Shown: positions 4,459-39,659 of the stretch, one piece after another
How the letters are laid out: each line of letters opens with the position of its first letter
Position numbering within the stretch: the first letter of the stretch is position 1
Virus record (IMG/VR): IMGVR_UViG_2859725622_000004
Location: 1-64,000 of that record
Source of the DNA: a virus
Taxonomy: Duplodnaviria; Caudoviricetes
Length of the DNA: 64,000 bases
Strand: one strand, 5' to 3'
Made by a program: the position numbers and the translations under genes
Notes under the pieces: generated by a model
What the model was told of the DNA's origin: nothing
Databases searched by the model: none
The model's input: only the letters and a program-made list of their open reading frames with translations

Positions 4459-4461
4459 GTA

Positions 4462-7962: not shown

Positions 7963-8019
7963 TTACGCCCCCTGAAAATAAAAAACCCCGCCAGAAGCGA
8001 GGTTGATGGTTGTACTTTA

Positions 8020-10242: not shown

Positions 10243-10243
10243 C

Positions 10244-10618: not shown

Positions 10619-10630
10619 GATAATGAATCC

Positions 10631-12312: not shown

Positions 12313-12316
12313 GGGT

Positions 12317-13610: not shown

Positions 13611-13611
13611 A

Positions 13612-14658: not shown

Positions 14659-14767
14659 GTAGTGTCTCTTTTGATTTTCTGGCAGCCAGAGCCGCCAGAC
14701 AAAGATTGAGGACGAGTAAGCCCCTACCAGGTGAATGGCATTGGGTGCACAGTAAGGAATTTAGATT

Positions 14768-15753: not shown

Positions 15754-16610
15754 TACTTTTCTCCAACCAATGTTAATAAATCGCGGAATGCGACATCAGG
15801 CGGGGCGACTTGATCAGCCAGCCCCAACTGCACACCATCAGCGGCCAAGAAACATGCCGCCTCGGTGTCCCTGATAGTTCTTTCTGCTATCCCGCGATTG
15901 CGGGAAACGGTACTCACAAACAGGCGGCCCATCTCGTCAACATCAGATTGAATGGCCTTCTTTGCCTCTTCGCTTAATGCTTCATAGGGATTTGATTCGG
16001 CTTTTCTGCTGCCAAAAGTGATTATCGTAACCTGTACCCCATCGCTTTTTATGCGCTGCGACCAGTCAACATGCATCACGATGACGCCGATAGAACCAAC
16101 CCCGCCGGTGCGAGGAACGATAATCCGATCCGCTGCACTGGCCAGCGCATAAGCAGCCGAATAAGCATTTTCGGACAGGATTGACCAAATGGGTTTAGCG
16201 CCTCGGGCGGCATAAATTTCATCGACCAAATCAAAACAACCGGCGACTTCACCGCCCGGTGAATCGATATCAAAACAAATGCCCTTCACCGCATCATCAT
16301 TCATTGCTGTCAGAAAGCTGGCCCGAATACCGTCATAGCCTGTCATGCCGCTATAAGGTCGCAGGGTGCCTAACTTTTGCACCAACGTGCCCTGAATCGG
16401 AATGACCGCCACGCCCTCGATAACGTCATAGCCACAATCACGACCCTTGCGTGAAAAGAAATCATCCTCTTCGTCGGCCCAATCGGCATTAGACTGGATA
16501 CGCGTCAGTCCGAACCGGTCAGTCAATGCCGCCATAACCACTTCAGCCTTGTGTGGGTGAAGTGCCAACGGGGTGTTAAATAGCCGCTGGGCTAAATGTG
16601 GAAGATTCAC
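15753..16610 (-). CDS. S49 family prohead protease
   Basis: DIDSPGGEV, AYSAAYALAS, GGVGSIGV motifs. Confidence 0.95.
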   Translation of the reverse strand: MNLPHLAQRLFNTPLALHPHKAEVVMAALTDRFGLTRIQSNADWADEEDDFFSRKGRDCGYDVIEGVAVIPIQGTLVQKLGTLRPYSGMTGYDGIRASFLTAMNDDAVKGICFDIDSPGGEVAGCFDLVDEIYAARGAKPIWSILSENAYSAAYALASAADRIIVPRTGGVGSIGVIVMHVDWSQRIKSDGVQVTIITFGSRKAESNPYEALSEEAKKAIQSDVDEMGRLFVSTVSRNRGIAERTIRDTEAACFLAADGVQLGLADQVAPPDVAFRDLLTLVGEK

Positions 16611-18244: not shown

Positions 18245-18507
18245 CAGTAACGAAACCTTATCGCCCTGCGTGGACGCTTAACGATGCCTAGCTGAGCCTG
18301 AAGAAGCTGAATTAACCCCATGAGTGTCCCAATATCTGTTTGCTGATAGGTAACCGATCGGGTGCCATCCCCTTGCGCATAGGAGAACGAAACGCCCTTC
18401 GCGCCGGACGATAATTCGATATAGGCTTGCTGCGCTCGGTTTAATGCCTCTTCTAATTGGGCGCGACTCATCGCACCGGCCAGTAGGCTAGTGTTTGCAT
18501 TGAACAT
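18244..18507 (-). CDS. gpW head completion protein
   Basis: Small gene between terL and portal; RSVTYQQTD...RR motif. Confidence 0.8.
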   Translation of the reverse strand: MFNANTSLLAGAMSRAQLEEALNRAQQAYIELSSGAKGVSFSYAQGDGTRSVTYQQTDIGTLMGLIQLLQAQLGIVKRPRRAIRFRY

Positions 18508-18515
18508 GGATATCC

Positions 18516-20495: not shown

Positions 20496-21075
20496 GGCTT
20501 AGCTCCTCCATTGCCTCGTAAACCACTTCTTGCAGTGCTTCAACAAACTCCGCATCGTTAGTGGTTGAGGCCAGCACCCGCAAGCGGGGACCATGTTCGG
20601 GAGCGATGGCAATCAGGCGGGTACGCATACGTGAATATTCGCTACCTACCGCCTCAATCATCTCTTTGTAAGGAAGTACCTGACCTGATTTAATGTCATA
20701 TTCCAACCGAGTGAGCAGCGCCAGAAAGTTTTCTTTCATTTCTCTGGCTTCATCGATTGTCATCTCGACGCCGCTTTCAGCAATCATTTTCTTCACAACG
20801 TCTGCGGGAGAATCCACCGGATCTTTATCAGGTCTGTTACCTGATCTGTTACCTTTGGCTCTGTTACCCGTCTTGTTACCTGCTTTGTTACCCTGCGTGT
20901 TACCTGCAACTTTTTTCTCTGGTCGGGTAACAGTTTTCCGAAAGCGCTCAATGTTGGCATTTGATGCCTCAACATCAATGTCATCACCCGCTAAAACCAG
21001 CCACCCACGCGCCTTCCATGCTGTAACCGTCTTTCGGCTGACATTGTGAAGTTTGGCAAAATCTGACTGGTTCAT
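20464..21075 (-). CDS. Terminase small subunit (Nu1-like)
   Basis: N-terminal HTH MNQSDFAKLHNVSRKTVTAWKARG; overlaps terL start; follows cos. Confidence 0.85.
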   Translation of the reverse strand: MNQSDFAKLHNVSRKTVTAWKARGWLVLAGDDIDVEASNANIERFRKTVTRPEKKVAGNTQGNKAGNKTGNRAKGNRSGNRPDKDPVDSPADVVKKMIAESGVEMTIDEAREMKENFLALLTRLEYDIKSGQVLPYKEMIEAVGSEYSRMRTRLIAIAPEHGPRLRVLASTTNDAEFVEALQEVVYEAMEELSLDNNNNGESS

Positions 21076-21133: not shown

Positions 21134-21180
21134 ACGGGGCGCGCAATGTCCCGTGTAATAAATGTTGCCAGGAGGGACCC
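21134..21180 (-). other. Putative cos site (cosQ-like GGGTCCC plus dyad cosN-like ACGGG-N11-CCCGT)
   Basis: Resembles lambda cosQ GGGTCCT and spacing; upstream of terS. Confidence 0.6.
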
Positions 21181-21186
21181 ATTTTT

Positions 21187-23093: not shown

Positions 23094-23615
23094 CTATTGA
23101 TGTGTGGTGCTGTTAATTATTAACCGGCCGTCAGCGACAACCTTTTGTAGCGCGGTGACCTTCTCGACTAACTTGTCGGCTCGTTCAGCGATTGAAATAA
23201 GAAACCCGACATCTGCGTCTGAAAATCCGCAGTCTCTGGCTGCATCAGTGAGCTGTCCACTGGCGGGAGTAACGGGCATATCCCCAACTGAAGCGGCGAG
23301 ACACTCGAAACGCTTTTGCAGCTTGATATTGCCAGCACGGTAAGCAGCAATAGTGCCTTTTGCTTTGTTCTCAGCATCTACTACCCCTTGTTGATATGCC
23401 TTTAATCCGGCTGACTGGGCAGCCTGAAGTTGAGCCTCTTTTTCGGTAGCACTTTTTTTGGCGGCTATTTCTGCCGTTAGGTCTGATTTATCGCGCTTAG
23501 TCCACTTGAGAGACCATTCCGAGTTTTTACTATCGCTACCCCACCAGTACCCGCCGCCGACTAAAACTGAAATCGTCAGTGCGACGGCTATCAATCTCAA
23601 TAGGGTTTCTTTCAT
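23094..23615 (-). CDS. i-spanin (Rz-like)
   Basis: N-terminal TM helix, coiled coil; after endolysin. Confidence 0.85.
   Translation of the reverse strand: MKETLLRLIAVALTISVLVGGGYWWGSDSKNSEWSLKWTKRDKSDLTAEIAAKKSATEKEAQLQAAQSAGLKAYQQGVVDAENKAKGTIAAYRAGNIKLQKRFECLAASVGDMPVTPASGQLTDAARDCGFSDADVGFLISIAERADKLVEKVTALQKVVADGRLIINSTTHQ
23168..23377 (-). CDS. o-spanin (Rz1-like) embedded lipoprotein
   Basis: Nested in Rz in another frame; signal peptide with LAISSC lipobox; Pro-rich. Confidence 0.75.
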   Translation of the reverse strand: MLRTKQKALLLLTVLAISSCKSVSSVSPLQLGICPLLPPVDSSLMQPETADFQTQMSGFLFQSLNEPTS

Positions 23616-24007
23616 GCGGGTATCTCAATGTGAGGCGCATCTAAGAACTTAGCGGGCTTGTCATTTGGGTTATCAGTCCAACTGATACCAAAACGCAGCT
23701 TAATGCCCAGCTCTTTACCCGCACGGTGCATGGCATCCAATACCGGCAGCCAGCACTTATAGTTATTCCAGTCACCGCCAACGGGGAACAGATCAACCGC
23801 ATTCCCAGAGATATGACGGCTGTTCATTGTTTGACTCTTGCCAGTGGCCACCAGCTCTTTTTGCCGTTCTACCGTGCGGACACCTTCGATCACGCCAAAA
23901 TCTACGATTGATAGCTCAAGGGCGCGGCGGACTACTTTCACCAATACAGGGTTAACACCTTTGAGGTTATTATCACTCCGCTGGCTGAATCTGAAATTAC
24001 TTGTCAT
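23612..24007 (-). CDS. Endolysin, M15 family (L-Ala-D-Glu peptidase)
   Basis: EGVRTVERQKEL...SRHISGNAVD...DAPHIE. Confidence 0.9.
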   Translation of the reverse strand: MTSNFRFSQRSDNNLKGVNPVLVKVVRRALELSIVDFGVIEGVRTVERQKELVATGKSQTMNSRHISGNAVDLFPVGGDWNNYKCWLPVLDAMHRAGKELGIKLRFGISWTDNPNDKPAKFLDAPHIEIPA

Positions 24008-24335
24008 TCTCTTTTCCTTCTTCCATTGGCCTGCCCGTTACCTTCCACTTGAACAAGCTGGATAAATAATCCGTGCCGAGATAACCAATAATTACACTAG
24101 AGAGGTATGCGAGGTCGGTCGATAACCCGAAGAAATTAAGTAGGTCACGCACCGCAAAAGCTATCGCAGCACACATCAGTGCATCCAAAAAACATCTACG
24201 CCATGGCTTCTCGTTATACCGGCCACGTAACCAGGCGATAATCCCAGCGATCCCGCCATAGCCCAACTCGGGACGATGTGCGGCTATCCATCGGGTAATG
24301 ATGTCCATAAGGTCAGGGTTGTTATGCATTTTCAT
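23997..24335 (-). CDS. Holin, lambda S family, with Met-Lys-Met dual start
   Basis: MKM start (24335/24329); three hydrophobic segments; IIGYLGTD motif. Confidence 0.85.
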   Translation of the reverse strand: MKMHNNPDLMDIITRWIAAHRPELGYGGIAGIIAWLRGRYNEKPWRRCFLDALMCAAIAFAVRDLLNFFGLSTDLAYLSSVIIGYLGTDYLSSLFKWKVTGRPMEEGKENDK

Positions 24336-24584
24336 ATCTCCCCCTCCCATACGGGCTGGGCGTGTAGTTAAGGACTTTAGCCCACCAGTGCAGCCACTCA
24401 TCTGTTAATAGTGTGTGTGGAGTTGATTGGGTGACTGATGGGCTAAAACTGAAAAAGGCCACGAATTAACACTGTCTAATAGTTGCCTGCTTTTAACCAC
24501 GTCAGGCGAGGTGCATCCTGTCATTCCCCAACAACATGGATTCGGTTAATCTGAATACCCCCAACAATATGAAGAGTATTTATT

Positions 24585-28120: not shown

Positions 28121-28546
28121 CTACAGAGCATTGTCAGAACAGGTCTGATACAGTTTTGTACTATCAGATTTATGCGTCCACTCATCCATTTCTAACTTAG
28201 CCCCTGCCATAATCAAACAGGCATCTACAAAAGTTTCAGCCAGCATGAGTTTTAACCGAATCTTACCCTCTGAGCATTTATGCTTCCTGGCAATCGCTGA
28301 CTTTGATATACCCTTTTTATAATGCTGCTCTATCAGATTATACTCTTCGCTGCGTCCTGCCTTTTTTAGCCTGCCTATAGCAGCATCGACTAACAACCCA
28401 TCATTATCACAGCACGACAACCGTGATTTTGTGGTACTGGGTAACAGACCTTTAAATCCTGCTGCAATGGGGGAGTAACCTACGCCACTATCTTCATTTG
28501 CTGCCCAACCGCCCCAGCGTTCTAATACCAATTGAATATCACGCAT
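28121..28546 (-). CDS. Late antiterminator Q
   Basis: MRDIQLVLERWGGWAA...YSPIAAGFKGLLP...CCDNDGL. Confidence 0.9.
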   Translation of the reverse strand: MRDIQLVLERWGGWAANEDSGVGYSPIAAGFKGLLPSTTKSRLSCCDNDGLLVDAAIGRLKKAGRSEEYNLIEQHYKKGISKSAIARKHKCSEGKIRLKLMLAETFVDACLIMAGAKLEMDEWTHKSDSTKLYQTCSDNAL

Positions 28547-28585
28547 ATTATGGATACCCCTCTGAATCCCTGGACGTTACCCAAT

Positions 28586-28616
28586 AAAAAAGCGAGCCGT
28601 ATTTAATATACGACTC
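28586..28616 (-). terminator. Intrinsic terminator directly upstream of Q
   Basis: GAGTCGTAT/ATACGGCTC stem then GCTTTTTT on minus strand. Confidence 0.7.
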
Positions 28617-28807
28617 ACTATTTATATTGATTAGCTATGTAGACATATTACCATAAATCGTAACGATAAATGAGTAAATAACGGTAATATCTTCCATGAT
28701 GGCAGCACGTTAGGCGACGTTAATTGAATTATTTAACAAAGTTAATTCTTAGCGGTGCATTCATCACCAGATCCCCGTCTATTCCAATGCTTCTGCTTTT
28801 GCATCCC

Positions 28808-29800
28808 CTATACGCACTCATGCACGCCTATCAAATTCAGATATACCGCATCATTATCTGATCCTGAAAAACTCTGATGTCGCTCACTTTGCAAATACCA
28901 TTTCAATACATCCAGTGCCTCTCGTTGATGGCGAGGGCGGATGATTTCAAGCTTCTTATCAAGGTAGGTTTCACGATCAGATATAGGCCCTTCACAATCA
29001 TAACCATATCCACCAGGGTCCATTTCTTTGCAAGCAGCATTACGCACCGTATATAACCATTGCCAATACTGAAATTCTCTTACAACATCAGACAGTGTAT
29101 GAGGCTCTGGTAAAACCCCAGCGAAACCCTTTGACGCTTGCGCTCGCAGGTCCCATACATCAGTAACTCGCTTACCCTCAATACATCCCTTCTTTTTTTC
29201 CTCAGGTGTCCAGCCAAAATCATTATCATAAATATCACCACAGACCATCTCCATGAGTTGTTCGGCTCTAGTAGGCTCCAGTGCTGCCTCATAGCTGCCA
29301 AATGTTCCCCTGACCTCTGCTGCGCGGGAATATTGTGTTCTAGCTCGGTCTATATAATGCTGTGGGTCGCCCATCATTAGTGTGGAAAAGCCAGCAGTCC
29401 ACCCAGCGCCATTCGCTTCTAAATAACGAGTGTAATTATCTCGAGCATCTTTAGGGGATATAGTCAGCTTGTGCAAGGCTTCCTCAGCCGCTGCAATATG
29501 TCCCGGTTCGCCGGTATTGATAACTTCCAACACCCACAAATAGGCGTCGGTCTGCTTATCTCCCGTAATACGCCGCTGTACGGGTAACGGCTTTGGCACT
29601 ATAAGTGCAGTGCTGTATTGCTTCTCTGGTATCTCAAACATCGCTGTATGCTCGGGATTATCAGCAAATAACCCCGACCGCTTACAGGCGCTTTTGACCG
29701 TGCTCAAATTCAAATTAGTCATATCGGCTATCCGTTTATAACCGATGCCTGATTGTTTAAGCCGAAATACCTCAGCACGTAATTCTTTTGTCATTCTCAT
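28808..29800 (-). CDS. Satellite-associated protein with N-terminal HTH, function unknown
   Basis: GIGYKRIADMTNLNLSTVKS HTH; follows primase. Confidence 0.7.
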   Translation of the reverse strand: MRMTKELRAEVFRLKQSGIGYKRIADMTNLNLSTVKSACKRSGLFADNPEHTAMFEIPEKQYSTALIVPKPLPVQRRITGDKQTDAYLWVLEVINTGEPGHIAAAEEALHKLTISPKDARDNYTRYLEANGAGWTAGFSTLMMGDPQHYIDRARTQYSRAAEVRGTFGSYEAALEPTRAEQLMEMVCGDIYDNDFGWTPEEKKKGCIEGKRVTDVWDLRAQASKGFAGVLPEPHTLSDVVREFQYWQWLYTVRNAACKEMDPGGYGYDCEGPISDRETYLDKKLEIIRPRHQREALDVLKWYLQSERHQSFSGSDNDAVYLNLIGVHECV

Positions 29801-29908
29801 GATATGCATACCCTGTATTCTTTTACTCTCTGTCAGGGCATTGGTGTAATACCCCACCAGAGAGAATGATTTATCCGATTCAGGTCAGTTCAAATGGAGG
29901 CGATCCGC

Positions 29909-32584
29909 TTATTCCTCCAAATCATCAGGCATCATGAGCACCACAAAACGGGGTTGCTTACCGTCAATTCTGAGCGTTTTCTTGGTGATCCCCTTGCTCG
30001 GTTTATCCAACATACCGGCATCTGCCAGAACCTGAGCAAAAGCCACTGCATTAGCACCTACGGCTATCTCGTCGCGAAACACCGACGGGAAGGTATGGAA
30101 TACCAATGTGTCGAGTCCCTGCTTTTTCTCCCGATACCCCGCTAAATCCTTTATTGGTAAATCTCGTGGATCCGTTTCAGGGTGTGGTAAATAACGGCTA
30201 TAACCGAAGCGTTGCAAGAAAGACTCAGCCTGTTCCGCCCATGCTTTTGACTCTCGGTTCCCCATACCAAAATCATTAACCCATGCATTAAAGCCATGCT
30301 GTAAAGCATCACGACACTCTTGTTCATTCCAACTGGTAAGGTGTTTGGAAAGTAGCAAAGCGGCTTCCAGTATGGCGAACCTCGATGCAACACGGCGTAC
30401 CTGCTCACTGGCTTCATCGGGTAATAATGCTATCCACCGACGTTCCGCATCCCTGACAGCTTGCGCTGCCGCCTCTTTCTGACTGGCTAGACATTTTATC
30501 CATGCCCGCCCTACCGCACCGTAGTGGTCTTTACAGGCATCTCGCATAGCATCTGCATGCGCTTTACCGTCCTTATAGCCATGGTATTCAGTTGCTTTGG
30601 TAATAGGGACATTTAATAACCGCACCAGTTGGCCAGCGTTTACTTTGCCACCATCAGCTCTGATATAACTTTCGAGATCGATCTCACCGGTACTGAATGC
30701 CATTGCGCGCCAGCGTTTCACATCCCGATTACCGCCCTCCTTGGCCCCCTGAATTTTGCCGACGCCGTTAAACAAAGCATAAGCAGCATCAGCAACTGCG
30801 CGTTTATTGCTGCCTTGCCCTATCTCATCCAGTGGCATAAAACCGTCATTGTGCGCCGCAGCTTCATTTACCAATCCCAACGCTGTTGAGTACCACGTCA
30901 GCTTCAGCGCTTCGGGTTCGCCATAAACAGTGGTAGCTGCATTACCCGTCGTGGTTTTACCCGCGGAGGAGCCACCGAATAAATGAACACCAAAACCATC
31001 TGCACCAGCCAGACCAATCAGCGGAGCAGCAAAGGCGCAGGCAATACCCAACATCATGGAGGGATTACCTCGAGCAAGTTTGGCCACATTGTTGCGCCAG
31101 CTTTCTGGAGTCCCCTTGGTGGTGTAGCCTTTTGCCGCCGATGAGCGACCATTAAAGAGTACCGGGGTTGCAGGTGCGCCAATCACCGAACCATCCGGCA
31201 TGATGTATGCCCCACACTGCCAGCCAGTAGCATTGGCAACTGTCCAAAGCTGCCGCTCTCCACTGCGTTGCAGGTAGTCAGCCAGTATTGCCCGTAATCC
31301 ACTTTTGGCTGTGATAGATAAACCACCAGCCCGCAGCCGCGACCAACCTTCCCGTTCGCCAATGTCACGCATAGGTAAAGCTTCTGAACGTTTGGTATTG
31401 TTACCCTCCGGCGTCCAGGAGAGGATCAGATACCGCTCGTTATCGTCTTCACCTATCCCCGCAACTGATATCGGGTCACTCAGCCAGCTTTCTCTTTCCG
31501 TAATATTGCCGTTACTTTTATCCAGTTTGGGTTCAACCCAATACATGCCCCCTTTACGCTCATCAACATATGGACGCCTGACATCCTGAGGCTCCGCTAC
31601 CGGAGGCTCCTCTTCTGCCAAAATATGTGGTTGATATAGAGAATCAGCAAACGCGGTAATACTCGCATCCAGTCCATACTGCTGACGATAATCATCCCAG
31701 TCGGCTTTATGGTCTGTCGGTGGTAAGGCAACCCAGCCATTCACCGCGGTAGCCGCTTTCTCAGCAGATTCTTTCCCGACATTCTTTTCACCGGGTTTAA
31801 GATCGTTATCAGCAGCAATGATAATTTTCGCATCAGGCCAACGTTCCCGGCTGGCTTTCGCTATATGGATCAGGTTCCCTTCATCAATAGCGGCCAGCAC
31901 AACCCCATCACTCAGTAACGAAACTGTAACGCCGGTTGCGTTACCCTCCGCAATTAACACCGTTACAACCAGCTCATCATTCAGTGCAGTTGGAAGTCTC
32001 ACTGGAATGAATGAACCTTTCTTGATGGTGCCGGATATCAGTCGTTTGGTGCCATCAGGCTTAATCACCTGCGCACCCTTTACTACGCCCTCCATTGTTT
32101 GCAGTACCAGCAGCAAAGAACCGTCACTCAATAAGGCTTGAGGGGGGCTTGGAAGCCCCTTATTAAGTAGGTACTGAGATTCGCCAGGTACCGTTTTCGC
32201 CACCAGCTCCGCAACCTTATCCGCTATCGGGATACTGGGTTGTACCGGCTGTTTTACAGATTTAGCAGGTACCGTCGCAGACACTCGCGAGTCGGGATCC
32301 ATTCCCAGTGCATCTGCTACCATGACCGCCGCCTCAGTGGAGGTGCATTGCTTAACTTTCTGTACCAGCTCAAGCCCATCACCGGCACCACACTGATTAC
32401 AGAAATGGGTCCCACGTCCATCCTGATCATCAAATCGGAATCTGTCTTTGCCACCACATGCCGGACAAGCAGAATGGTCGCGAGGTCGTTCCGGTACATC
32501 AATACCGAGGTAACCAAGAATATCGCGCCAACGGTTGGTAGCCTGAGCCGTAACTTCACGGATCATGTCGATGGATGGCTTCAT
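29909..32584 (-). CDS. Primase-helicase: zinc finger, Toprim, DUF927/SF3-like helicase
   Basis: CPACGGKDRF, AEGNATG, IAADND, GGSSAGKTT Walker A, LDEIG. Confidence 0.95.
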   Translation of the reverse strand: MKPSIDMIREVTAQATNRWRDILGYLGIDVPERPRDHSACPACGGKDRFRFDDQDGRGTHFCNQCGAGDGLELVQKVKQCTSTEAAVMVADALGMDPDSRVSATVPAKSVKQPVQPSIPIADKVAELVAKTVPGESQYLLNKGLPSPPQALLSDGSLLLVLQTMEGVVKGAQVIKPDGTKRLISGTIKKGSFIPVRLPTALNDELVVTVLIAEGNATGVTVSLLSDGVVLAAIDEGNLIHIAKASRERWPDAKIIIAADNDLKPGEKNVGKESAEKAATAVNGWVALPPTDHKADWDDYRQQYGLDASITAFADSLYQPHILAEEEPPVAEPQDVRRPYVDERKGGMYWVEPKLDKSNGNITERESWLSDPISVAGIGEDDNERYLILSWTPEGNNTKRSEALPMRDIGEREGWSRLRAGGLSITAKSGLRAILADYLQRSGERQLWTVANATGWQCGAYIMPDGSVIGAPATPVLFNGRSSAAKGYTTKGTPESWRNNVAKLARGNPSMMLGIACAFAAPLIGLAGADGFGVHLFGGSSAGKTTTGNAATTVYGEPEALKLTWYSTALGLVNEAAAHNDGFMPLDEIGQGSNKRAVADAAYALFNGVGKIQGAKEGGNRDVKRWRAMAFSTGEIDLESYIRADGGKVNAGQLVRLLNVPITKATEYHGYKDGKAHADAMRDACKDHYGAVGRAWIKCLASQKEAAAQAVRDAERRWIALLPDEASEQVRRVASRFAILEAALLLSKHLTSWNEQECRDALQHGFNAWVNDFGMGNRESKAWAEQAESFLQRFGYSRYLPHPETDPRDLPIKDLAGYREKKQGLDTLVFHTFPSVFRDEIAVGANAVAFAQVLADAGMLDKPSKGITKKTLRIDGKQPRFVVLMMPDDLEE

Positions 32585-32997
32585 GCTGCACCGTCCTGAC
32601 TGAATACCAGCCCATGCCGGTTATCGTGAGGATTAGCCAAAGTCTCTACGACTGTAGCCTTCATGACTTCCGTCATTGTCTCGACGCCGTGCGGTGTCAA
32701 TTTACTGTTATCCTTACTCAGCATCTGAGTGTAGGTTTCCACAAGGATCCGCGAGCCGTCATCACGCCCGAATTCCTGAAAACAAAGCACTTCCAAAGAA
32801 TGAATAAGGCAATTACAAATTGCTGCCTCAGTTAAATTTTCCAGAACAACAACCTTTCTAGAATTAATAATGACATTGGCAATGGATTCGCCTCTATTTC
32901 GTTTCTGACAATAAGCGATAAATGCCACTGCAATATGTTTACGATTTAATTCGATTGAATGATTCAGGTTCGTCATAAATATATCCTTTCCTTTCAT
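32581..32997 (-). CDS. Hypothetical protein
   Basis: ORF in operon; overlaps primase start. Confidence 0.55.
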   Translation of the reverse strand: MKGKDIFMTNLNHSIELNRKHIAVAFIAYCQKRNRGESIANVIINSRKVVVLENLTEAAICNCLIHSLEVLCFQEFGRDDGSRILVETYTQMLSKDNSKLTPHGVETMTEVMKATVVETLANPHDNRHGLVFSQDGAA

Positions 32998-33089
32998 CAG
33001 GCCGAGCGAGTCCCCAGCCTGATGGCTGTTATTTTTGAGATGTTGGAATGCTAACTAATTAAATACAGAGCATTTAGCTATTGGCTTTA

Positions 33090-33293
33090 TCAAGGCGCTC
33101 CATTTTGTCCAGCCTCCCGCTCAAGCAAATGAACCGCAACTGGCCCGGCGAGATCCAGTGCTAGACCTAGTAATTCCTTTTCGTCAGTAGTATCTAATTC
33201 AACATTGGATTCAAACATCAACAGCAAGAGAGCATTTAATTGACCAGCCTTATGCGTGGCAATATCCAGAGGTACTGATTCATTGGCTTTCAT
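33090..33293 (-). CDS. Hypothetical satellite protein
   Basis: Compact operon ORF. Confidence 0.6.
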   Translation of the reverse strand: MKANESVPLDIATHKAGQLNALLLLMFESNVELDTTDEKELLGLALDLAGPVAVHLLEREAGQNGAP

Positions 33294-33295
33294 GG

Positions 33296-33466
33296 TTATG
33301 CTCTCCCGATAAAGGTAAATTCAGCGACGAACCGTGCCAGTGGCATAATGCAGGGCGATGAATATCCGTCACGGCTAAAAGTAACGCGATTAAAGGCAAC
33401 ATTATCGACAGTGACCAATGAGCCATGACTGTCTTTGTAACGATCATTTGGCAGCGGTTCGCGCAT
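33296..33466 (-). CDS. DUF4222-like protein, 56 aa
   Basis: MREPLPNDRYKDSHGSLVTV...RVTFSRDGY..PC..P...F..EF, translated by hand. Confidence 0.7.
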   Translation of the reverse strand: MREPLPNDRYKDSHGSLVTVDNVAFNRVTFSRDGYSSPCIMPLARFVAEFTFIGRA

Positions 33467-33641
33467 AATTCACCCCCTCGATATTTTTCGCCGCTTTTTC
33501 AGCGCGATCCATAGCAATCCAAAGAAGTTCGTAACCCGTGTCGTTACCATCCTCACTAGCAATCAGCATTGAACTGACTTTTAAAATTGAAGCAATTTGA
33601 CTGAGAAGATCGGAAACTTCGCAGGGCGCTAATTTATCCAT
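33444..33641 (-). CDS. Hypothetical satellite protein
   Basis: Overlapping operon ORF. Confidence 0.55.
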   Translation of the reverse strand: MDKLAPCEVSDLLSQIASILKVSSMLIASEDGNDTGYELLWIAMDRAEKAAKNIEGVNYARTAAK

Positions 33642-34428
33642 GAGTCACCCCCATAACATCGGACAGATTGATGCTATGTACTGCCAGCCATGCTTCGCGA
33701 GGCCATGATTTTACAGAGCCATACTGTGGATCCGGCACAATCTCAGGTTTAAAGTCATTCTCAAGACACCATTTCCGCAACGGATGCCACGCAAACTTCT
33801 GATGAGTCACATTTTCTACAGCTTTCACCGTGGCATGCTTTGTACTTTCCCCCAACCGTTCTTCCAGTACACGACATTTGCGAGTAGCTGCACTTAGTTT
33901 GCCGAGGGCGCTGGCTTCACGTTTACGGCTAATCTGACCTTTGGTACGAATAGCTTTATCAGCACGCTGCTTTTCAGCTAAGCGGCCTTGCTCGGAGTCG
34001 ATAGCCAGTTGAAGGATTTCCAAGCGACTGAGGTCGGGAATAGTTGCAGGTGCTGGCAATGCATCCCGTCGGGAAAAGTAAAACTCAGTGAGGTCATTGA
34101 AGTAGTCCCACGCCTGATCCGTTTCTAACATCTTCGCGTGATTGGCCGCACCGCGCTCAGTCCAGAGCATAAGTGAGCGAGTTTTTGGCGAGATTTGCAG
34201 TTCGCTTAAAACTAGTCGCAAATTGTTGAGTTCAGTACCAACCACTTTGAAGAAGTGCTTACCCTCAACAAAGCGGGATTTATTTTCATGGTGGTTTTGC
34301 TGAATACGGATCACCGTTGTGCCATACCCAGCCGCCAGCTGCTCAGTAGTTGCCACACGCTGACGGCGATACTCAATAACCTGCAAATCTTTGGCCGCTA
34401 CCAGAGCCAACTCAGTTTTTTTAGACAT
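33634..34428 (-). CDS. ORF6N-domain antirepressor-like protein
   Basis: IEYRRQRVATTEQLAAGYG...RFVEGKHFF...LWTERGAANHAKMLETDQAW. Confidence 0.85.
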   Translation of the reverse strand: MSKKTELALVAAKDLQVIEYRRQRVATTEQLAAGYGTTVIRIQQNHHENKSRFVEGKHFFKVVGTELNNLRLVLSELQISPKTRSLMLWTERGAANHAKMLETDQAWDYFNDLTEFYFSRRDALPAPATIPDLSRLEILQLAIDSEQGRLAEKQRADKAIRTKGQISRKREASALGKLSAATRKCRVLEERLGESTKHATVKAVENVTHQKFAWHPLRKWCLENDFKPEIVPDPQYGSVKSWPREAWLAVHSINLSDVMGVTHG

Positions 34429-34879
34429 TGCACACCCCCTGCTCATTTTTCGCGTCATGCTCTTCAAACCGTACGATGTTATGTACCGCCTCAGCCCACC
34501 AATACACCTGCAATCGTTGCTGCTCGTTCTCAATCAGAGGAATAACAACCGTCAACAAATGAAGCAGACCTTCTTTAACGCGAAGTAACCGAGTGCGAGA
34601 TATATTCTCGCTGGTATCAGGGATTGGCTTACCACGGCTGCCCATCAGTTCAGCAATCAGGGCTTGAGTTTCTTTGTATGAAGGTGGGTAGATATCATCC
34701 TCATCAAGGAGCTGCATGATGCTGGTGATCTGAACGTTGCTTAACCGGCGCTCTGTAGCCCCCAAGAGAACAGTGACAGATGCTTTATCAAGGCTTTCAG
34801 CTTCACCACACCATGACAGTTTGAGAGCACCACCAGCAGCGTCTAATGCGCTAAATTCAACACGGTATTTTTTAAGCAT
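34421..34879 (-). CDS. Hypothetical protein
   Basis: ATG overlapping the icd-like stop. Confidence 0.55.
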   Translation of the reverse strand: MLKKYRVEFSALDAAGGALKLSWCGEAESLDKASVTVLLGATERRLSNVQITSIMQLLDEDDIYPPSYKETQALIAELMGSRGKPIPDTSENISRTRLLRVKEGLLHLLTVVIPLIENEQQRLQVYWWAEAVHNIVRFEEHDAKNEQGVCNV

Positions 34880-35066
34880 TGCATACCCCCTGTGCAGGAA
34901 TACGACCAGCAAAGGAAAGTACGAACTGACCAGCCAGAAAGCGGCGGGCATCTTGTTCAGAATGGGCAGTGACTGATTCACGGTGTGGCTTAGCGTTCAA
35001 GTCAGAACGGCACACGGCGAGAAAGAGATACTGAAATTTAGGGCGAGTTTGGGTATGATTTAACAT
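34872..35066 (-). CDS. Host cell division inhibitor Icd-like protein
   Basis: FQYLFLAVCRSD...PHRESVTAHSEQDARR..AGQFVLSFAGRIP; GAGG RBS. Confidence 0.85.
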   Translation of the reverse strand: MLNHTQTRPKFQYLFLAVCRSDLNAKPHRESVTAHSEQDARRFLAGQFVLSFAGRIPAQGVCNA

Positions 35067-35165
35067 AGCTACCTCGATACTCAATCTATCGTTGGTGGTA
35101 AGAGGCCCGGTTAGTGTTAGCGCACTGCTGGGCTTCGTTATTTTGTGTACTGCCTGTGCCTTATC

Positions 35166-35253
35166 TGTGGATAAGGTGTGATTTAAATTACAATCAAATG
35201 AATCACACATCAAGTGTTTTGTGTGATTTGATTTCATGTATACTGAATCACAC
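35166..35253. promoter_or_regulatory. Divergent promoter region with DnaA box and two GTGTGATT-N17-AATCACAC operators
   Basis: TTATCCACA (minus) 35166-35174; inverted repeats at 35176-35208 and 35221-35253. Confidence 0.7.
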
Positions 35254-35274
35254 GTTTTATTCAAGGTGCTGAAC

Positions 35275-35607
35275 ATGGCAACAAATACGGTTAACGACAA
35301 ATCAAAACAAATATCCATTCGCATTCCACACGATGTAATGGACGGAATGGAAGCGGTAAAAATGGATGGTGAAAGTAATGCCGGTTTTATCGTTTCCGCT
35401 ATGCAGGGTGAGATAGCCCGCCGCCAACTCAAAGAGAGCGACGAAAATAAGTTGCTGTCCAACCTCAATGGCGCACTAGAAGCACTAGCTCGTATCGAAG
35501 AGATCGGTACGAAGGCAGGGGAAAATATCAAGGCCATCGTTGACGTAGCGCAGAGTGAGATCAAACGCCGCCAGCGCAAAAAGGCCAAGGCCGAACCATC
35601 TGAGTAA
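35275..35607 (+). CDS. YlcI/YnfO family ribbon-helix-helix regulator
   Basis: KSKQISIRIPHDVM...GESNAGFIVSAMQGEIARRQ. Confidence 0.8.
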   Translation: MATNTVNDKSKQISIRIPHDVMDGMEAVKMDGESNAGFIVSAMQGEIARRQLKESDENKLLSNLNGALEALARIEEIGTKAGENIKAIVDVAQSEIKRRQRKKAKAEPSE

Positions 35608-35944
35608 CCCAGAAGGGTAGCATTCACAGTGCTACCCTTTTCTTTGCCTGAACCCGAATACTGTTCGTGTTTGGTTAAACTCGGTGAGTTGCCGTTTTTG
35701 AGCAGTGTTTGCTGAGCCAAATATTTGGCTGAGCGGTAATCTCCATTATATTCTGGAGATTGGTATAGATTGCTTGCTCCAGGTACTACGGAAGTTTCGT
35801 AGTTTAAATTTTGAGCGTCAGTATTACTGACTTTCAACTGCTCCGAAATTAACGGGTTAGTCTCCGACTCGCTCAAAGATAGTCGGTTCAGGGTGCCAGC
35901 CAAGGGAAATGCCTTTTTCTGGCTGGCTACTGGAGTTGTAAGCA

Positions 35945-36457
35945 TCATGCCACCACCTCCACACGCAGACCTTTAGCCGTGTAGCCCTGAACCTGCTTAC
36001 CATTCACACGAACCCTCTTTTTAGTCAGTAAGCGGATGTGGTCACCGTATACATGAAGTAATTTTCCATCTAAAGCGACCTCGTTATAACCATATCGAGG
36101 CTTATGTGACACCTGCACAAATAGGCCACAAGCCTTGCTATTAGCGGGAACTGGTGCGACAACCCCCTTATCTTTGCCGGTTACTCGATACAACCAGAAT
36201 CGTCCGTCTTTCCCTGTCAGCTTCCGAGTACGAACCGGCACATAGCCAGCTTTGTGCATGGCTACACTGAACGCTGAATCATCGGGATAATACTGGCGAC
36301 GAATATTGGCAGGGACAGAAATAGCGAAACTTTGCTTAGTCCAATACTCTGTCCATTGATCTACAAACTCGATAGGCAAACCATTAACGTTAATACCGCT
36401 GAGTACGATTTTAGGCTGAGTTTGGGTACTGCCAATTAAGGCATTTAATTTTTTCAT
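35945..36457 (-). CDS. Hypothetical protein
   Basis: ORF downstream of alpA. Confidence 0.6.
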   Translation of the reverse strand: MKKLNALIGSTQTQPKIVLSGINVNGLPIEFVDQWTEYWTKQSFAISVPANIRRQYYPDDSAFSVAMHKAGYVPVRTRKLTGKDGRFWLYRVTGKDKGVVAPVPANSKACGLFVQVSHKPRYGYNEVALDGKLLHVYGDHIRLLTKKRVRVNGKQVQGYTAKGLRVEVVA

Positions 36458-36565
36458 GTTTAATTACTCTTCGTTAAATCGTTTGGTGTCTGTAGCGACG
36501 GAAATCAAATATTGGATTAAACCAAATGCAAGTACACGCAAGTAATGCACACCCTATATGCTTAA

Positions 36566-36772
36566 TTAGGCGACCTCCTTGCGGGATTCAGCAATGCGTT
36601 GGTTGATCCATTCGTCAATTTCGCTTTCAACGAAGGCAATAGCACGTATGCCGATTTTTACGGAAGTGGGGAATTTCCCATGGGAAATAAGGCGGTATAT
36701 CCAAGCTTTGCTGTAACCGGTACGGCGCTGGACCTCTCCAAGGCGGATCAGTGAGTGTGTACTTTGTGGCAT
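36566..36772 (-). CDS. alpA: AlpA family regulator/excisionase
   Basis: LIRLGEVQRRTGYSKAWIYRLI..GKFP..VKIG.RAIAFVESEIDEWI. Confidence 0.95.
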   Translation of the reverse strand: MPQSTHSLIRLGEVQRRTGYSKAWIYRLISHGKFPTSVKIGIRAIAFVESEIDEWINQRIAESRKEVA

Positions 36773-36881
36773 ATAGCCCCCTGTATTAGTCTATTGAGGA
36801 TGACAGGGGGATTCTCCGTTCAATTCTTGTTACTCGATAGATATGTACACAAAAAACATTCCTCTATGTTTTATGTCGCTA

Positions 36882-37850
36882 TCAGTTTTCAGCGAGTTTC
36901 AGTATATCTGAAAATCTCATATTTTTGAGATACTCATTTTTCTTAACGAAAAAAATCATCTCCCGAAGGAGATCATTGCTAACTATCTTTTCAATAAAAG
37001 GTTTTACAGTATCTTTAATTTGAGAACTACTTATTACATCATAATCATATTCAGACAAGGGGAATAATATCCTTGCATACATCTCGTTACTGATCTTCTT
37101 TTTACAGGCCTTTTCCCAAATCATTAAATCAATAAATGGAATTACTTTGTAAGTTATTATTTTCTTTAAGGTAGAAAGTCCAACTCTATTTACGGCCCTA
37201 TCTGGTTCATCAATACCAGACTCAACCCTCCAATTTTTTATCATTTCCTTGAATTCAGTAATCAATTCTTCATCAGAGAATTCTTCAAGGTTAAGTTTAA
37301 TAACCACCTCTCCACTAAAACTCTCCCCTAAATAATCAACATTGGTAATTTCCCTACCAACATGTGTACCCTGAACCTCCACAAAACCGTTTTGGTTATC
37401 AACTATATAACCGTGTCGTCTTAGAGCGTTATAGTATGAAATTAAGTCACCAACCATAAATGGAGCGCATGCCAATCCAGAAGTAAATGGTTCATCCTTG
37501 GACACATTATGATAATCGCGAGAGACAATGGGCCATCCATTAAACTGCAATGTGATATCTTTGATATTTTCTTCAGTATCATTCTCACTCTCTGAACAAC
37601 CTTCTCCAAGGTTATGTAAGTAGGCTGATAGTGAATTAATATGGCCTTTTTTCAAACCATCGATAAAACTTAATCTTGATTCATTCATTTCTTTAGCACG
37701 CATTAACGTGTCACTGTCATCACCTTCAAAGAGCAAGAAAATCCTGAACTCAATATCTTTCAAAATTTCATCTATTGTGAATTCCAATAACTCTTCATAT
37801 CTTGATACATTAAACCAAGAAAGGATTTCCTGTGCCTTCACTCTAACCAT
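36882..37850 (-). CDS. DUF6387-like protein
   Basis: WFNVSRYE N-terminus and LNLEEFSDEELITEFK...YKVIPFIDLMIWEK...ILFP C-terminus; between int and alpA. Confidence 0.65.
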   Translation of the reverse strand: MVRVKAQEILSWFNVSRYEELLEFTIDEILKDIEFRIFLLFEGDDSDTLMRAKEMNESRLSFIDGLKKGHINSLSAYLHNLGEGCSESENDTEENIKDITLQFNGWPIVSRDYHNVSKDEPFTSGLACAPFMVGDLISYYNALRRHGYIVDNQNGFVEVQGTHVGREITNVDYLGESFSGEVVIKLNLEEFSDEELITEFKEMIKNWRVESGIDEPDRAVNRVGLSTLKKIITYKVIPFIDLMIWEKACKKKISNEMYARILFPLSEYDYDVISSSQIKDTVKPFIEKIVSNDLLREMIFFVKKNEYLKNMRFSDILKLAEN

Positions 37851-38116
37851 AATGCTACCTCCCGCCCTCTTTAAATTAGGGACCATACCCGCCAGTAAAA
37901 ATACTGGTTTTCGGAAACCGCCTAGACATAGCCTTATTCTCTTGAGGTCTACTATAAATCACCACTGTATACTCGTCCAGCATCCACCCTCCCCATGCGC
38001 AGCATCACTTCACATTTTCACATCAAACTGTAGTGAAAAATTTCGGCTTATCGATTACAGATTTAGGGTGATTTAGCTGAGAAAAAGCCAGGTTTTCGGG
38101 AGATAACGCGATTAGG

Positions 38117-38225
38117 GTCGGTTCAAATGGCCTAAAGTCGGTTCAGGGTCGGTTCAAAAAATGAATTAATTAACCTATAAATCAACAAACTAAAATATTG
38201 AACCGACTGAACCTACTGAACCGAC
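38117..38225. repeat. Putative replication origin: 3 + 3 inverted 9-bp iterons around an AT-rich core
   Basis: GTCGGTTCA at 38117, 38137, 38148; TGAACCGAC at 38199, 38217 and variant at 38208. Confidence 0.7.
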
Positions 38226-38261
38226 CCTTTTTTATTCCTCACGGAAGAATTTTATCCAAAA

Positions 38262-39449
38262 CTAATCTTTTGACTGACGTTCCAGGCTATCCATATAGTC
38301 GGCATACCACTGAAGCATTTCCCTGCGACCATCAAGATACTGAGCGTGATTATAGGTGCCACGAATGCTGTTCTTATCGACGTGGGCCAACTGTGTTTCT
38401 ATCCACGCAGTATTAAACCCCTGTTCATGCAAAATGGTACTCATAGTGTGACGGAAACCATGACCAGTGGCTTTACCATGATAACCAATACGTTTTATGA
38501 CCTGATTAATACTGGCTTCGCTCATTGGCTTTAAGCTGTCATTACGACCGGGGAATACCAGTTTAAATCGCCCAGTAATCTCATGTAATTGACGCAGTAA
38601 TGCCAAAACTTGCTCTGATAAGGGAACCAAGTGAGGACGACGCATTTTCATTCTGGCGGTGGGAACTTCCCAGACGGCTTTGTCCAAGTCAAATTCTAGC
38701 CACTCAGCGGCCCGTAGTTCAGTTGTACGAACACCAGTAAGCATCAGTAGCCGTGTTGCTATTCGAGTGACTGTACTGCCACTATAGGCATTGAGAGCGT
38801 TAAGGTATGCGGGAAGCTCGTTAGCTAAGAGGTGGGGGTAATGCGTGTGCTTCTGAACCGCCAGAGCGCCAGCTAGTTCACTTGCTGGATTGTTCTCTGC
38901 CCTGCCGGTTACGATTGCATAACGGAAAGTTTGGCTGCATGCCTGACGGATCTTACGCATTTTATCGAGGACGCCGCGCTTTTCTAACTTGCGTAGGGTT
39001 TCGAGAATTTCTAGAGGTTTGATTTCGGCAATTGGACGTTTTCCAACGTAAGGGAATATGTCTTTTTCGAACGACTCCATTAAATCATCAGCATAACCTT
39101 TGGACCAATTGGGCCTTTTGTAGGCATGCCATTCTCTGGCTAGAGCTTCGAACGTGTTATCAATGCTGACTTTTCTGGTTTGTTTTTCTACTTTTTTTTC
39201 TTCACCAGGGTCGCCGCCCACAGCAAGTATACGCTTAGCCTCATCTCTTTTTGCTCTGGCTTCAGCGAGAGTGATATCAGGATAGACCCCAAATGCTAGC
39301 AATTTTTCTTTACCGGCGATCCGATACTTCAGCCGCCAACAACGTGAACCAGTAGTTTTTACTAACAAAAATAATCCACCTCCATCAGATAGCTTATAGG
39401 GCTTCTCTTTTGGCTTTGCAGTATCGACCTGTCGGGCGTTCAGTTTCAT
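38262..39449 (-). CDS. int: P4-family tyrosine integrase
   Basis: DGGGLFL arm domain; TGVRTTELR, HGFRH, LAH...Y catalytic motifs. Confidence 0.97.
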   Translation of the reverse strand: MKLNARQVDTAKPKEKPYKLSDGGGLFLLVKTTGSRCWRLKYRIAGKEKLLAFGVYPDITLAEARAKRDEAKRILAVGGDPGEEKKVEKQTRKVSIDNTFEALAREWHAYKRPNWSKGYADDLMESFEKDIFPYVGKRPIAEIKPLEILETLRKLEKRGVLDKMRKIRQACSQTFRYAIVTGRAENNPASELAGALAVQKHTHYPHLLANELPAYLNALNAYSGSTVTRIATRLLMLTGVRTTELRAAEWLEFDLDKAVWEVPTARMKMRRPHLVPLSEQVLALLRQLHEITGRFKLVFPGRNDSLKPMSEASINQVIKRIGYHGKATGHGFRHTMSTILHEQGFNTAWIETQLAHVDKNSIRGTYNHAQYLDGRREMLQWYADYMDSLERQSKD

Positions 39450-39451
39450 GT

Positions 39452-39500
39452 GGGGGTATCTCACTTCATTGAACCTAGACATACCCCCAATAGTACCCCC
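39452..39500. promoter_or_regulatory. Probable integrase arm-type sites of element 1
   Basis: GGGGGTAT, ATACCCCC, GTACCCCC repeats next to int start. Confidence 0.55.
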
Positions 39501-39614
39501 ACTTTGTTGTTGATTGCAGTGGATGCAGGTAGACGTTGGGATGCTAGGAATTGTCAGAGAGGCTGATTATATAAGGGATTAGTAGACTTAGATAGACGTT
39601 AGAAGAGGTATAGA

Positions 39615-39659
39615 TGGTACGCCCTACAGGATTCGAACCTGTGACCTACGGCTTAGAAG
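39615..39659 (-). other. att site: 3' half of tRNA-Arg(UCU), not a complete tRNA
   Basis: Minus strand CTTCTAAGCCGTAGGTCACAGGTTCGAATCCTGTAGGGCGTACCA; upstream sequence lacks D arm and 5' acceptor strand. Confidence 0.9.

Follow-up and report, generated by a model that had tools for sequence, protein, structure and literature searches.

Gram-negative PICI satellites are about 10–20 kb long, lack tail and lysis genes, integrate into tRNA genes and follow four ordered zones: an inward-facing integrase with AlpA, a Bro-network zone, a primase replication zone and a late zone. 'Elongated PICIs' of more than 22 kb, in which as many as 17 late genes have been captured in a row, were described by Tommasini, Mageeney & Williams in 2023 (PMC10111431). 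The cfPICIs (e.g. EcCIEDL933; PMC10085698, PMC11389934) are by definition without tails and holins and need the tails of a helper; both gene types are forbidden components in SatelliteFinder, which rejects elements carrying them (PMC10085698). TIGER-based work uses AlpA and tail-L as opposite signatures. Satellite catalogues treat satellites and phages as cleanly separable, and whether PICIs and cfPICIs originated through phage reduction or through late-gene capture is an open question (reviewed in PMC11389934).

The element described here blurs this line. The window, a stretch of 64,000 nucleotides from IMG/VR record IMGVR_UViG_2859725622_000004, contains from position 39659 to position 1, on the minus strand, a single co-directional unit in which an early module leads into a late module. 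From the att site, the order is inward integrase, DUF6387 gene, AlpA, a divergent YlcI/YnfO-type gene, Icd-like gene, ORF6N/Bro gene and primase-helicase, followed by an HTH protein gene, Q, lysis genes, cos and 23 virion genes. In the early half, the four-zone organisation of Gram-negative PICI satellites replaces the lambda int-xis/cI-cro/O-P layout; the late half has a Q-dependent late operon, a lysis cassette, cos/terminase, and head and tail genes in lambda order. Positions 1-39659 (minus strand) are probably one integrated temperate cos-packaging phage genome with a lambda-type head and a Mu-type contractile tail, and we are confident that they form a single, conserved and complete phage-type unit. 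Judged from sequence comparison, the element most likely belongs to a temperate phage lineage with PICI-type early architecture and is not a one-off fusion.

The integration and control zones comprise the following features.
39614..39659, minus strand: att copy, a 46-bp 3' fragment of tRNA-Arg(TCT), matching tRNA-Arg 3' ends and prophage termini in phage records
38262..39482, minus strand: tyrosine integrase, P4/Sf6-type (Arm-DNA-bind_3, Phage_int_M, Phage_integrase; Pfam), read inward from att
38114..38228, unstranded: 14-nt direct repeats AGGGTCGGTTCAAA (two copies) with inverted copies, just downstream of int (repeat search)
36882..37886, minus strand: DUF6387 cargo gene (Pfam, E 1e-40)
36566..36772, minus strand: AlpA-family HTH protein, excisionase or activator (PF05930, E 6e-18)
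35275..35607, plus strand: divergent YlcI/YnfO-type gene, YlcI/YnfO_N family (NF041551, E 5e-19)
35176..35253, unstranded: two 33-nt palindromic repeats (GTGTGATT...AATCACAC) between the divergent repressor-like and Icd-like genes (repeat search)
34872..35075, minus strand: Icd-like small protein, first gene of the early operon (NF033153, E 9e-21)

Position 39659 is the edge of the tRNA-Arg 3'-end match and the junction with a second, classical lambdoid prophage (element 2), which stands in tandem with the element at the same tRNA. ARAGORN detected no full tRNA at the att fragment, and in a Megablast search of 28000-39700 against phage genomes the tRNA-Arg core was the only match. The initial annotation had reasoned from a tRNA-Arg att site, correctly in view of this fragment. 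No second copy was present in the 87-kb record or internally in the element when up to 25% mismatches were allowed, including between the early and late parts and specifically at 28546-29900. The record begins at window position 1; the other att copy must be located beyond that end, to the left of the window. In a related provirus, G006, the att sequence runs on into an intact tRNA-Arg(TCT), with a second att copy at a distance of 48.1 kb and no internal copy. The integrated element has a length of at least 39.7 kb (about 40 kb; 40–48 kb for genomes of the lineage), compatible with a BZS1-type capsid with a capacity of 45 kb.

The integrase does not have the outward int-xis arrangement; it faces inward from the att site next to it and is followed by AlpA, as in the first PICI zone. 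Its sequence is 100% identical (amino acids) in G006 and 86% identical in a Serratia silvae island, with a dN/dS of 0.01–0.04. The 14-nt repeats may be the 'iterons' from which an origin had been proposed; the repeats themselves were recovered, their reading as an origin is doubtful, and they possibly represent a candidate regulator-binding site.

Among the ORFs profiled in 28–39.7 kb, no match to O/P or to classical cI/cro was found, in agreement with the initial annotation, and their place is occupied by the divergent RHH-like/Icd-like pair and the primase-helicase. The 'RHH repressor' named in that annotation corresponds to the plus-strand YlcI/YnfO-type gene, which does have an RHH-like pattern. 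The protein combines an RHH-like N-terminal domain (beta-alpha-alpha in the alignment) with a long C-terminal helix; the AF2 monomer consists of a helix (residues 19-29), a loop and a second helix (35-106), with low pLDDT in the N-terminal, DNA-binding part. No significant match was obtained in Pfam or PDB sequence searches. Across about 40 loci the plus-strand frame of 35275-35607 is conserved far better than the antisense frame, by which a 358-aa minus-strand ORF over these positions was set aside as largely a shadow ORF. Based on its position, this pattern and the swapping of the cassette among close relatives, the protein is a candidate immunity repressor, and the palindromes at 35176..35253 are its candidate operators. 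Icd-like homologues occur in more than 100 related loci. A scan of 20000-42000 with Rfam gave no C4/isrK immunity RNA match at E<=1 and only a sub-threshold match to an int-alpA RNA. LexA-box searches yielded nothing credible and no S24-type repressor was found; an SOS induction route is therefore not visible. Induction could depend on another phage, as in PICIs.

The replication zone and the passage to the late genes contain six features.
33634..34533, minus strand: ORF6N/Bro-network protein (PF10543, E 4e-20; phrog_4936, phrog_1760), labelled 'anti-repressor' in PHROGs
33296-33466, minus strand: DUF4222 (profile search)
29909..32584, minus strand: primase-helicase, Zn_Ribbon_Prim + Toprim_3 + DUF927 (Pfam)
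28808..29857, minus strand: 349-aa protein with N-terminal HTH, between primase and Q (phrog_6204, E 8e-101)
28591..28619, minus strand: terminator-like hairpin between the HTH gene and Q (consensus scan only)
28121..28546, minus strand: late antiterminator Q (PF06530, E 1e-45)

The Bro-network zone precedes the primase replication zone, as in PICIs, and G006 has a Bro-N protein in the same zone. Profile searches confirmed the satellite-type early genes of the initial annotation (int, alpA, icd-like, DUF927 primase-helicase). The N-terminal 319 aa of the primase-helicase are 35% identical to P4 alpha, and homologues were collected from 62 + 80 loci (142 in total), with a dN/dS of 0.04–0.07. 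None of 50,697 deposited phage genomes contains a full-length close homologue, so no cultured phage shows the build of the window element. The best matches in phage genomes reach 57–58% over the DUF927 half; one is in what looks like a cfPICI-like segment, the other in a fragment from E. coli EDL933. The latter, a helicase fragment with 58% identity, may correspond to EcCIEDL933. The 349-aa HTH protein, all-alpha in its AF2 model, had no sequence match in Pfam, NCBIfam or PDB and no Foldseek match at E <= 0.001. It is 50% identical to the product of the gene between a P4-like primase and Q in Fels-1, ENT39118 and phi467. Q is 99% identical in G006 and 57% in a Yokenella element. No N-like function was seen; the terminator-like hairpin stands before Q.

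Three features make up the late region.
23094..24401, minus strand: lysis cassette with holin, endolysin and spanin (DUF2514; Pfam)
21138..21151 (about), minus strand: cos site (aligned locally with the BZS1 phage terminus and its annotated cosL)
2395..21075, minus strand: virion module (BZS1 gene matches)

The virion module encodes terS, terL, portal, protease, decoration protein, major capsid protein and connectors for head and packaging, and a Mu-type sheath, tube, tape measure, baseplate and fibre for the tail. All 23 genes p01-p23 of Serratia myophage BZS1 (vB_SspM_BZS1) were matched, collinear and uninterrupted, at 30–83% amino acid identity, three of the matches covering part of the gene only. 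The major capsid protein has the 83% identity; terL is 81.5% identical to that of BZS1 and 79% to that of Citrobacter phage phiNP (dN/dS 0.02–0.07). The cos match to BZS1 cosL is near-identical with one inserted base, and the lysis cassette has about 88% nucleotide identity in relatives. The late genes, from Q through lysis and cos to the virion module, are intact, as first noted. BZS1 and phiNP share the collinear virion module with lambda-type head, Mu-type tail and cos, but have a classical lambdoid early region (outward int-xis, a long pL operon, cI/cro and O) and a different Q and lysis cassette.

The early module is not exclusive to satellites, which weakens the reading in the initial annotation. 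Fels-1 (Salmonella), ENT39118 (Cronobacter) and phi467 (Escherichia) share with the element the order P4-type primase, HTH homologue, Q, lysis and terminase. What sets them apart from the window element is a cI/cro switch, int-xis in outward orientation, a helicase and a primase that are separate, and the lack of an int-adjacent AlpA, an Icd-like gene and the DUF927 fusion. With P4, the element has in common a P4-type integrase, an AlpA/Vis-type HTH protein and the Zn-ribbon/Toprim N-terminus of the primase. It differs in having a DUF927 helicase half and not D5/DUF5906, in the lack of a CI RNA match, in its fourfold size and in its own virion genes; Psu, Delta and Sid had no match among the ORFs submitted to Pfam/PHROGs, a set outside which several late-leader ORFs fall. 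The left arm (int-AlpA-primase) is homologous to that of cfPICIs, and like these the element encodes terS and terL as well as portal, protease, capsid and connectors of its own, but both tail and holin genes are present in addition. The primase has cfPICI-like relatives (L005, L029, L061/L063), some with Q.

The arrangement recurs in related genomes. Eleven IMG/VR proviruses keep window positions 28075-35055, including primase, HTH gene and Q, at 92–97% nucleotide identity; the junction is therefore not unique to this strain. G006, one of these eleven, is identical or nearly so in the early proteins (int 100%, primase 99% amino acid identity) and has a lambda/Fels-1-type tail module in its late genes, not the Mu-tailed module of the window. 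In another relative, G010, collinearity with the window spans about 480-38750; nucleotide identity there is 74–93%, with 88–93% over the virion and replication blocks. Elements of Serratia sp., Symbiopectobacterium purcellii (two) and Yokenella carry the same early module with complete siphovirus modules, joined through Q genes of family PF03589, PF06323 or PF06530. The Serratia sp. element is flanked by a 22-bp direct repeat with copies 42.0 kb apart; for the Yokenella and Symbiopectobacterium elements, no right att turned up in the stretch of sequence searched. Overall, the order primase, (SSB), HTH, Q, lysis, terL was present in about 19 loci, representing at least three or four lineages of the helicase tree. 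Every relative was a provirus by classification, the metagenome-derived ones included, and none of the latter was circular or had terminal repeats.

For int, primase, HTH, Q, terS and terL, dN/dS was 0.01–0.10 at dS of 0.1–1.0, which indicates purifying selection on the early and late halves alike. Between this lineage and other phages there is exchange of entire late modules, of Q alleles, of immunity cassettes and of integrases, and its early module is found as well in many small PICI/cfPICI-like islands. Of the class of autonomous phages suggested in the initial annotation, a recurrent, att-bounded, phage-type class on a satellite-style early module under purifying selection is retained; we lean, with some reserve, towards full independence of a helper. 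Neither of the two findings named beforehand as speaking against the proposal was made: an internal att copy is absent, and the junction is shared with other strains. Its novelty is less than claimed, because Tommasini et al. (2023) had already described 'elongated PICIs'.

In the life cycle that these genes suggest, the integrase would recombine the 46-bp core in the 3' end of tRNA-Arg(TCT), a site that is observed while the activity is deduced, and AlpA would give directionality or activation. The divergent YlcI/YnfO-type RHH-like protein would maintain lysogeny by binding the two 33-nt palindromes, which lie over putative divergent promoters. Derepression would lead to transcription of the early operon, encoding the Icd-like protein, ORF6N/Bro, small proteins, the primase-helicase and the HTH protein, and the primase-helicase would replicate the excised circle. 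Expression of Q would allow transcription through the lysis, cos-terminase, head and tail genes, after which the 40–48-kb genome would be cut at cos and packed into its own capsids.

A different reading, in our view unlikely, is that of an 'elongated PICI', a true satellite lineage with an entire late region captured from helper prophages. Such an element would have its own virions and lysis, yet receive its inducing signal from another phage, for instance by derepression of the RHH-like protein or activation of alpA. The three early zones with inward int and AlpA are the signature by which PICIs are called (PMC10111431), the SOS link is not visible, and the window-type build is found in no cultured phage. 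Small PICI/cfPICI-like islands account for about 110 of the 142 primase homologues. The two unrelated late modules on near-identical early modules, Mu-tailed in the window and lambda/Fels-1-like in G006, are the expected result of repeated capture, and the tandem with a classical lambdoid prophage at the same tRNA points the same way. However, with Q, lysis, cos, terminase, head and tail all conserved, no structural part is left to steal. Compared with elongated PICIs, the late zone is the whole late region (Q, holin, endolysin, spanin, cos, 23 virion genes and contractile tail), a combination seen in none of the satellites of PMC10111431 and in only one of its 169 prophages. Phage-type elements form most of a deep clade of the helicase tree and are not scattered tips, at a support of 83, below the cut-off of 95. 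G010 and the window share the early/late combination at about 10% nucleotide divergence, and G006 shares its tRNA with no other element apart from the remnant of one.

Still less probable, to the point of being hard to sustain, is a dead-end chimera, now a defective remnant: a BZS1-like prophage would have stood in tandem with a satellite at tRNA-Arg, and loss of the DNA from just past the primase up to the prophage Q region would have fused the two. Both element types do occupy tRNA-Arg in tandem, and either can come first; the deletion would be compatible with gene orientation, the nearest relatives by virion genes, BZS1 and phiNP, have early regions of the classical cI/cro/O kind, and one relative (L086) is visibly degraded. 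Against this, no att scar was found, the HTH and Q genes stand behind primase genes elsewhere too, in phages as in islands, the junction persists in 11 strains and in a relative with about 10% divergence, both halves are under strong purifying selection, and the 23 virion genes are uninterrupted. The initial annotation's alternative of a satellite joined to a late region by deletion-fusion is, as a recent event, likewise unlikely, without an internal att and with a junction that is not strain-specific; if a fusion ever happened, it would be old and its product since propagated as a unit. The possibility that the satellite part is helper-embedded (HE-PICI type) was rejected, as its integration site is a tRNA att site rather than the interior of a late gene.

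Under the preferred reading of a temperate phage lineage, an early chassis with 50–86% protein identity to that of small islands is combined, in several genera and with tails of several types, with complete virion and lysis modules that selection maintains. Tentatively, these elements could stand at one end, that of autonomous phages, of a continuum that also takes in the PICI and cfPICI satellites of Enterobacterales. If so, the int-AlpA-Bro-Icd-primase chassis would exist in full phages, capsid-only satellites and minimal islands with transitions both ways, satellites having arisen by late-gene loss or regaining autonomy through capture of a whole late region, and the rule of AlpA versus tail genes that separates satellites from prophages would conceal a whole class. 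If autonomous, the elements would be natural comparators for the origin of PICIs and cfPICIs, by reduction from phages or late-gene capture, and would provide a phage with a candidate RHH-type immunity switch and a DUF927 replicon. If a helper were needed only for induction, they would define a minimal form of satellite dependence.

PADLOC returned no defence system match for the cargo genes, the DUF6387 gene included. The G+C content around this gene is low, 0.365 (37001-38000), and the slot between int and alpA that it occupies is variable, with different genes there in relatives.

Element 1, the minus-strand prophage at 1-39659, is most simply read from its sequence as a member of a temperate phage lineage with PICI architecture in its early half. 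The window covers the opening 64 kb of an IMG/VR provirus record of 87,369 bp and holds two tandem prophages. Nearly every gene of element 1 lies on the minus strand and its left end is outside the record. From about 39660 follows element 2, a classical lambdoid prophage with minus-strand late genes and a divergent early region, whose integrase is cut off at the right end of the record. The end coordinate 39659, proposed in the initial annotation, marks the border of a 46-bp stretch that matches the 3' ends of tRNA-Arg. No whole tRNA was found in the record with ARAGORN, and a second copy of this att core was absent across the 87 kb, even allowing 25% mismatch, in line with the initial annotation, in which no att duplication was noticed between the early and late genes.

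In the related provirus G006, an intact tRNA-Arg(TCT) directly adjoins the integrase. Another att copy, mismatched at 4 of 36 positions, was located 48.1 kb away, past the tail and cargo genes, with no further copy between the two. Left of the distal copy, a 166-aa remnant of an element-2-type integrase (5500-6074) is the sole survivor, so both element types use the tRNA in either order, each behaving as a separate unit. The same tRNA-Arg(TCT) site holds two prophage types in tandem with the order reversed between strains; element 2, the lambdoid one, is on the tRNA side of element 1 in the window.

Profile searches bore out the genes read earlier for the early and lysis region, and identified the following features:

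39947-41782, plus strand: AT3-SGNH acyltransferase, probably located at the distal end of element 2
Element 1, early region: integrase of the Arm-DNA-bind_3 type
Element 1, early region: DUF6387 protein
Element 1, early region: AlpA
Element 1, early region: Icd-like protein (NF033153)
Element 1, early region: ORF6N/Bro protein
Element 1, early region: DUF4222 protein
Element 1, early region: primase-helicase of 891 aa (Zn-ribbon/Toprim/DUF927)
Element 1, early region: 349-aa protein with N-terminal HTH (phrog_6204)
Element 1, late half: Q (PF06530)
Element 1, lysis cassette: holin, endolysin and spanin

The only unsubstantiated item was the iteron origin, where short repeats are present at 38114-38228 with no tie to replication. 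The Rfam int-alpA RNA motif (RF02996) has a match below its threshold at 37868-37932 on the minus strand (27.4 bits, gathering score 35.8, E 0.055); this match sits between int and the next gene, where the motif is expected. The predicted structure of the 349-aa HTH protein, of reasonable confidence (pLDDT 76.5), gave no fold match. The protein is 50% identical to the product of a gene in Fels-1, Cronobacter phage ENT39118 and phi467, where P4-type primase, HTH homologue and Q follow in this order, as in element 1; the early module is not confined to satellites.

All 23 packaging, head and Mu-type tail genes of Serratia myophage vB_SspM_BZS1 have collinear, uninterrupted counterparts at 21075-2395, in agreement with the late ORFs having been described as intact. 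The annotated cohesive end of this phage aligns nearly base for base at approximately 21138-21151. Directly adjoining cos and terS is an HNH/homing-endonuclease-like gene (21187-21711, minus strand; PADLOC HEase, E 3e-6); in many cos phages the terminase needs an HNH partner, encoded beside cos/terS. The leader separating Q from the lysis genes contains an Abhydrolase_3 esterase gene on the other strand (27096-27803, plus strand; E 7e-69), with a TTG start and a match that starts at profile position 1. The gene resembles a moron and may be truncated at its N-terminus.

At 34872-35948, the minus-strand ORF of 358 aa is for the most part a shadow of the true gene, which occupies 35275-35607 on the plus strand. 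The frame of this plus-strand gene is much better conserved over about 40 loci and encodes a YlcI/YnfO_N family protein with an RHH-like beta-alpha-alpha pattern. An AF2 monomer model fits this pattern, with low confidence in that part of the protein. The RHH repressor of the initial annotation corresponds to this plus-strand gene, a candidate immunity repressor. Two 33-nt palindromes, GTGTGATT...AATCACAC, lie between this gene and the Icd-like gene. Element 1 therefore has a divergent switch-like region, though not of the cI/cro kind. The shadow-ORF family in related loci (cluster c2; 47 members, 180-440 aa) has probably been wrongly annotated by automatic means in the same way.

Homologues of the primase-helicase were found at 62 loci in species-representative Enterobacterales genomes and 80 in IMG/VR, with genes in related loci called by a simple greedy ORF caller. 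By gene clustering and profile checks, most are small islands with the order int, variable slot, AlpA, Bro zone, Icd-like, primase, and then usually SSB, PerC and a tape-measure-like protein, which matches the four-zone organisation of Gram-negative PICIs described by Tommasini, Mageeney and Williams (PMC10111431). Islands with detectable direct repeats measure 12-18 kb, and an E. coli example (PGAP annotation) has the same build beside tRNA-Gly. Some are cfPICI-like, with capsid, protease, portal, connector, HNH, terS and terL, two of them also with Q. The early module of element 1 is largely of satellite type. In L015 (14626-18036), L040 (14678-17254), about 20 other loci and E. coli EC2001 (18612-21308), the protein after primase, SSB and PerC is 850-1250 aa long with tape-measure (TMP_3, Phage_HK97_TLTM) or SLT domains; these islands gave no terminase, portal or capsid match in the 10 kb downstream of the primase. 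The 106.5-kb 'Klebsiella phage P12620-1' (PQ569648.1) ends in a cfPICI-like segment (90062-106503), with a DUF927 protein followed by ORFs, all annotated hypothetical, whose lengths match those of capsid, protease and portal in cfPICI-like relatives; this segment suggests a co-assembled or co-packaged satellite.

Six loci were extended by 20 kb. Elements of Serratia sp., Symbiopectobacterium purcellii (two copies) and Yokenella regensburgei combine AlpA, a homologous primase-helicase and a Q of one of three Pfam families (PF03589, PF06323, PF06530) with a lysis cassette and a complete siphovirus module. Three of these elements have an inward int ahead of these genes; in the fourth, one of the Symbiopectobacterium copies, the only int is truncated and lies on the other strand. 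Direct repeats of 22 bp, 42.0 kb apart, flank the Serratia element. The Yokenella element lies at tRNA-Arg(TCT), like the window family, and has four tRNA genes (Met, Ser, Thr, Gly; 15095-15401) after Q and ahead of the lysis genes, where lambdoid phages usually carry tRNAs. The remaining two loci, from Serratia silvae and Raoultella, turned out to be small islands followed by chromosomal genes. In a helicase-domain tree (FastTree, midpoint root, from which the direction of change is not readable), 18 phage-type elements and one degraded derivative group with a support of 83, below the 95 cut-off. This group falls within a 21-row clade of good support, whose other two rows are one island and one cfPICI-like element. 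A further two phage-type lineages lie elsewhere, and at least four changes of state are needed over the tree.

The main rival reading is that these elements are 'elongated PICIs' still needing another phage for induction. Three observations speak for it: neither a LexA box nor an S24-type repressor was found, no deposited phage genome contains a close full-length homologue of the primase-helicase, and every relative is classed as a provirus. Tommasini et al. described 11 elongated genotypes of more than 22 kb in which as many as 17 late genes had been captured, argued for still counting them as PICIs, and reported AlpA and Phage_tail_L/min_tail as near-exclusive signatures (PMC10111431). The elements here go further, with complete late regions that include Q and lysis genes, and in three cases the signature rule is broken. 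In SatelliteFinder, tail and holin profiles are forbidden components, and phages and satellites were reported to separate cleanly (PMC10085698). The origin of satellites, either as reduced phages or through de novo assembly and capture, is described as an open question (PMC11389934). What was observed directly in element 1 is its att site, its cos, the identities of its genes and their conservation; how it would work is deduced from gene order and knowledge of the families.

The primase-HTH-Q junction is not unique to this strain: 28075-35055 (Q, HTH gene, primase, into the Bro zone) is kept at 92-97% nucleotide identity in 11 IMG/VR proviruses from different genomes. One of these, G010, aligns collinearly with window positions of about 480 to 38750 (74-93%, and 88-93% over the virion and replication blocks), so the early-plus-late combination has persisted through roughly 10% divergence. 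Pairwise Nei-Gojobori comparison with six relatives gave dN/dS of 0.01-0.10 at dS 0.1-1.0 for int, primase, HTH, Q, terS, terL and the p72-like gene. An ancient fusion is a conceivable origin of the lineage, and the present nature of the element would be the same either way. As to the deletion-fusion alternative of the initial annotation, a recent event yielding a dead chimera is unlikely because of this conservation and selection and the absence of an att scar.

Neighbouring genes differ in dS (Q near 1.0, primase 0.14-0.44), which indicates mosaic exchange. The early genes of G006, another of the 11 proviruses, are near-identical to those of the window (int 100%, primase 99%, Q 99% at the amino acid level), and it carries a siphovirus virion module of lambda/Fels-1 type, unlike that of the window. 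The RHH-like gene with its candidate operators, the int-alpA slot and the integrase are swapped among close relatives, the pattern that would be expected of heteroimmune, recombining phages. In the close relative IMGVR_UViG_2657245428_000002 (96% nucleotide identity), internal deletions have taken out parts of o138, of the HTH gene and of the primase N-terminus, and a capsid gene follows 2.9 kb after Q. This degraded or reduced form is nested among the phage-type elements and may be a phage on the way to becoming a satellite.
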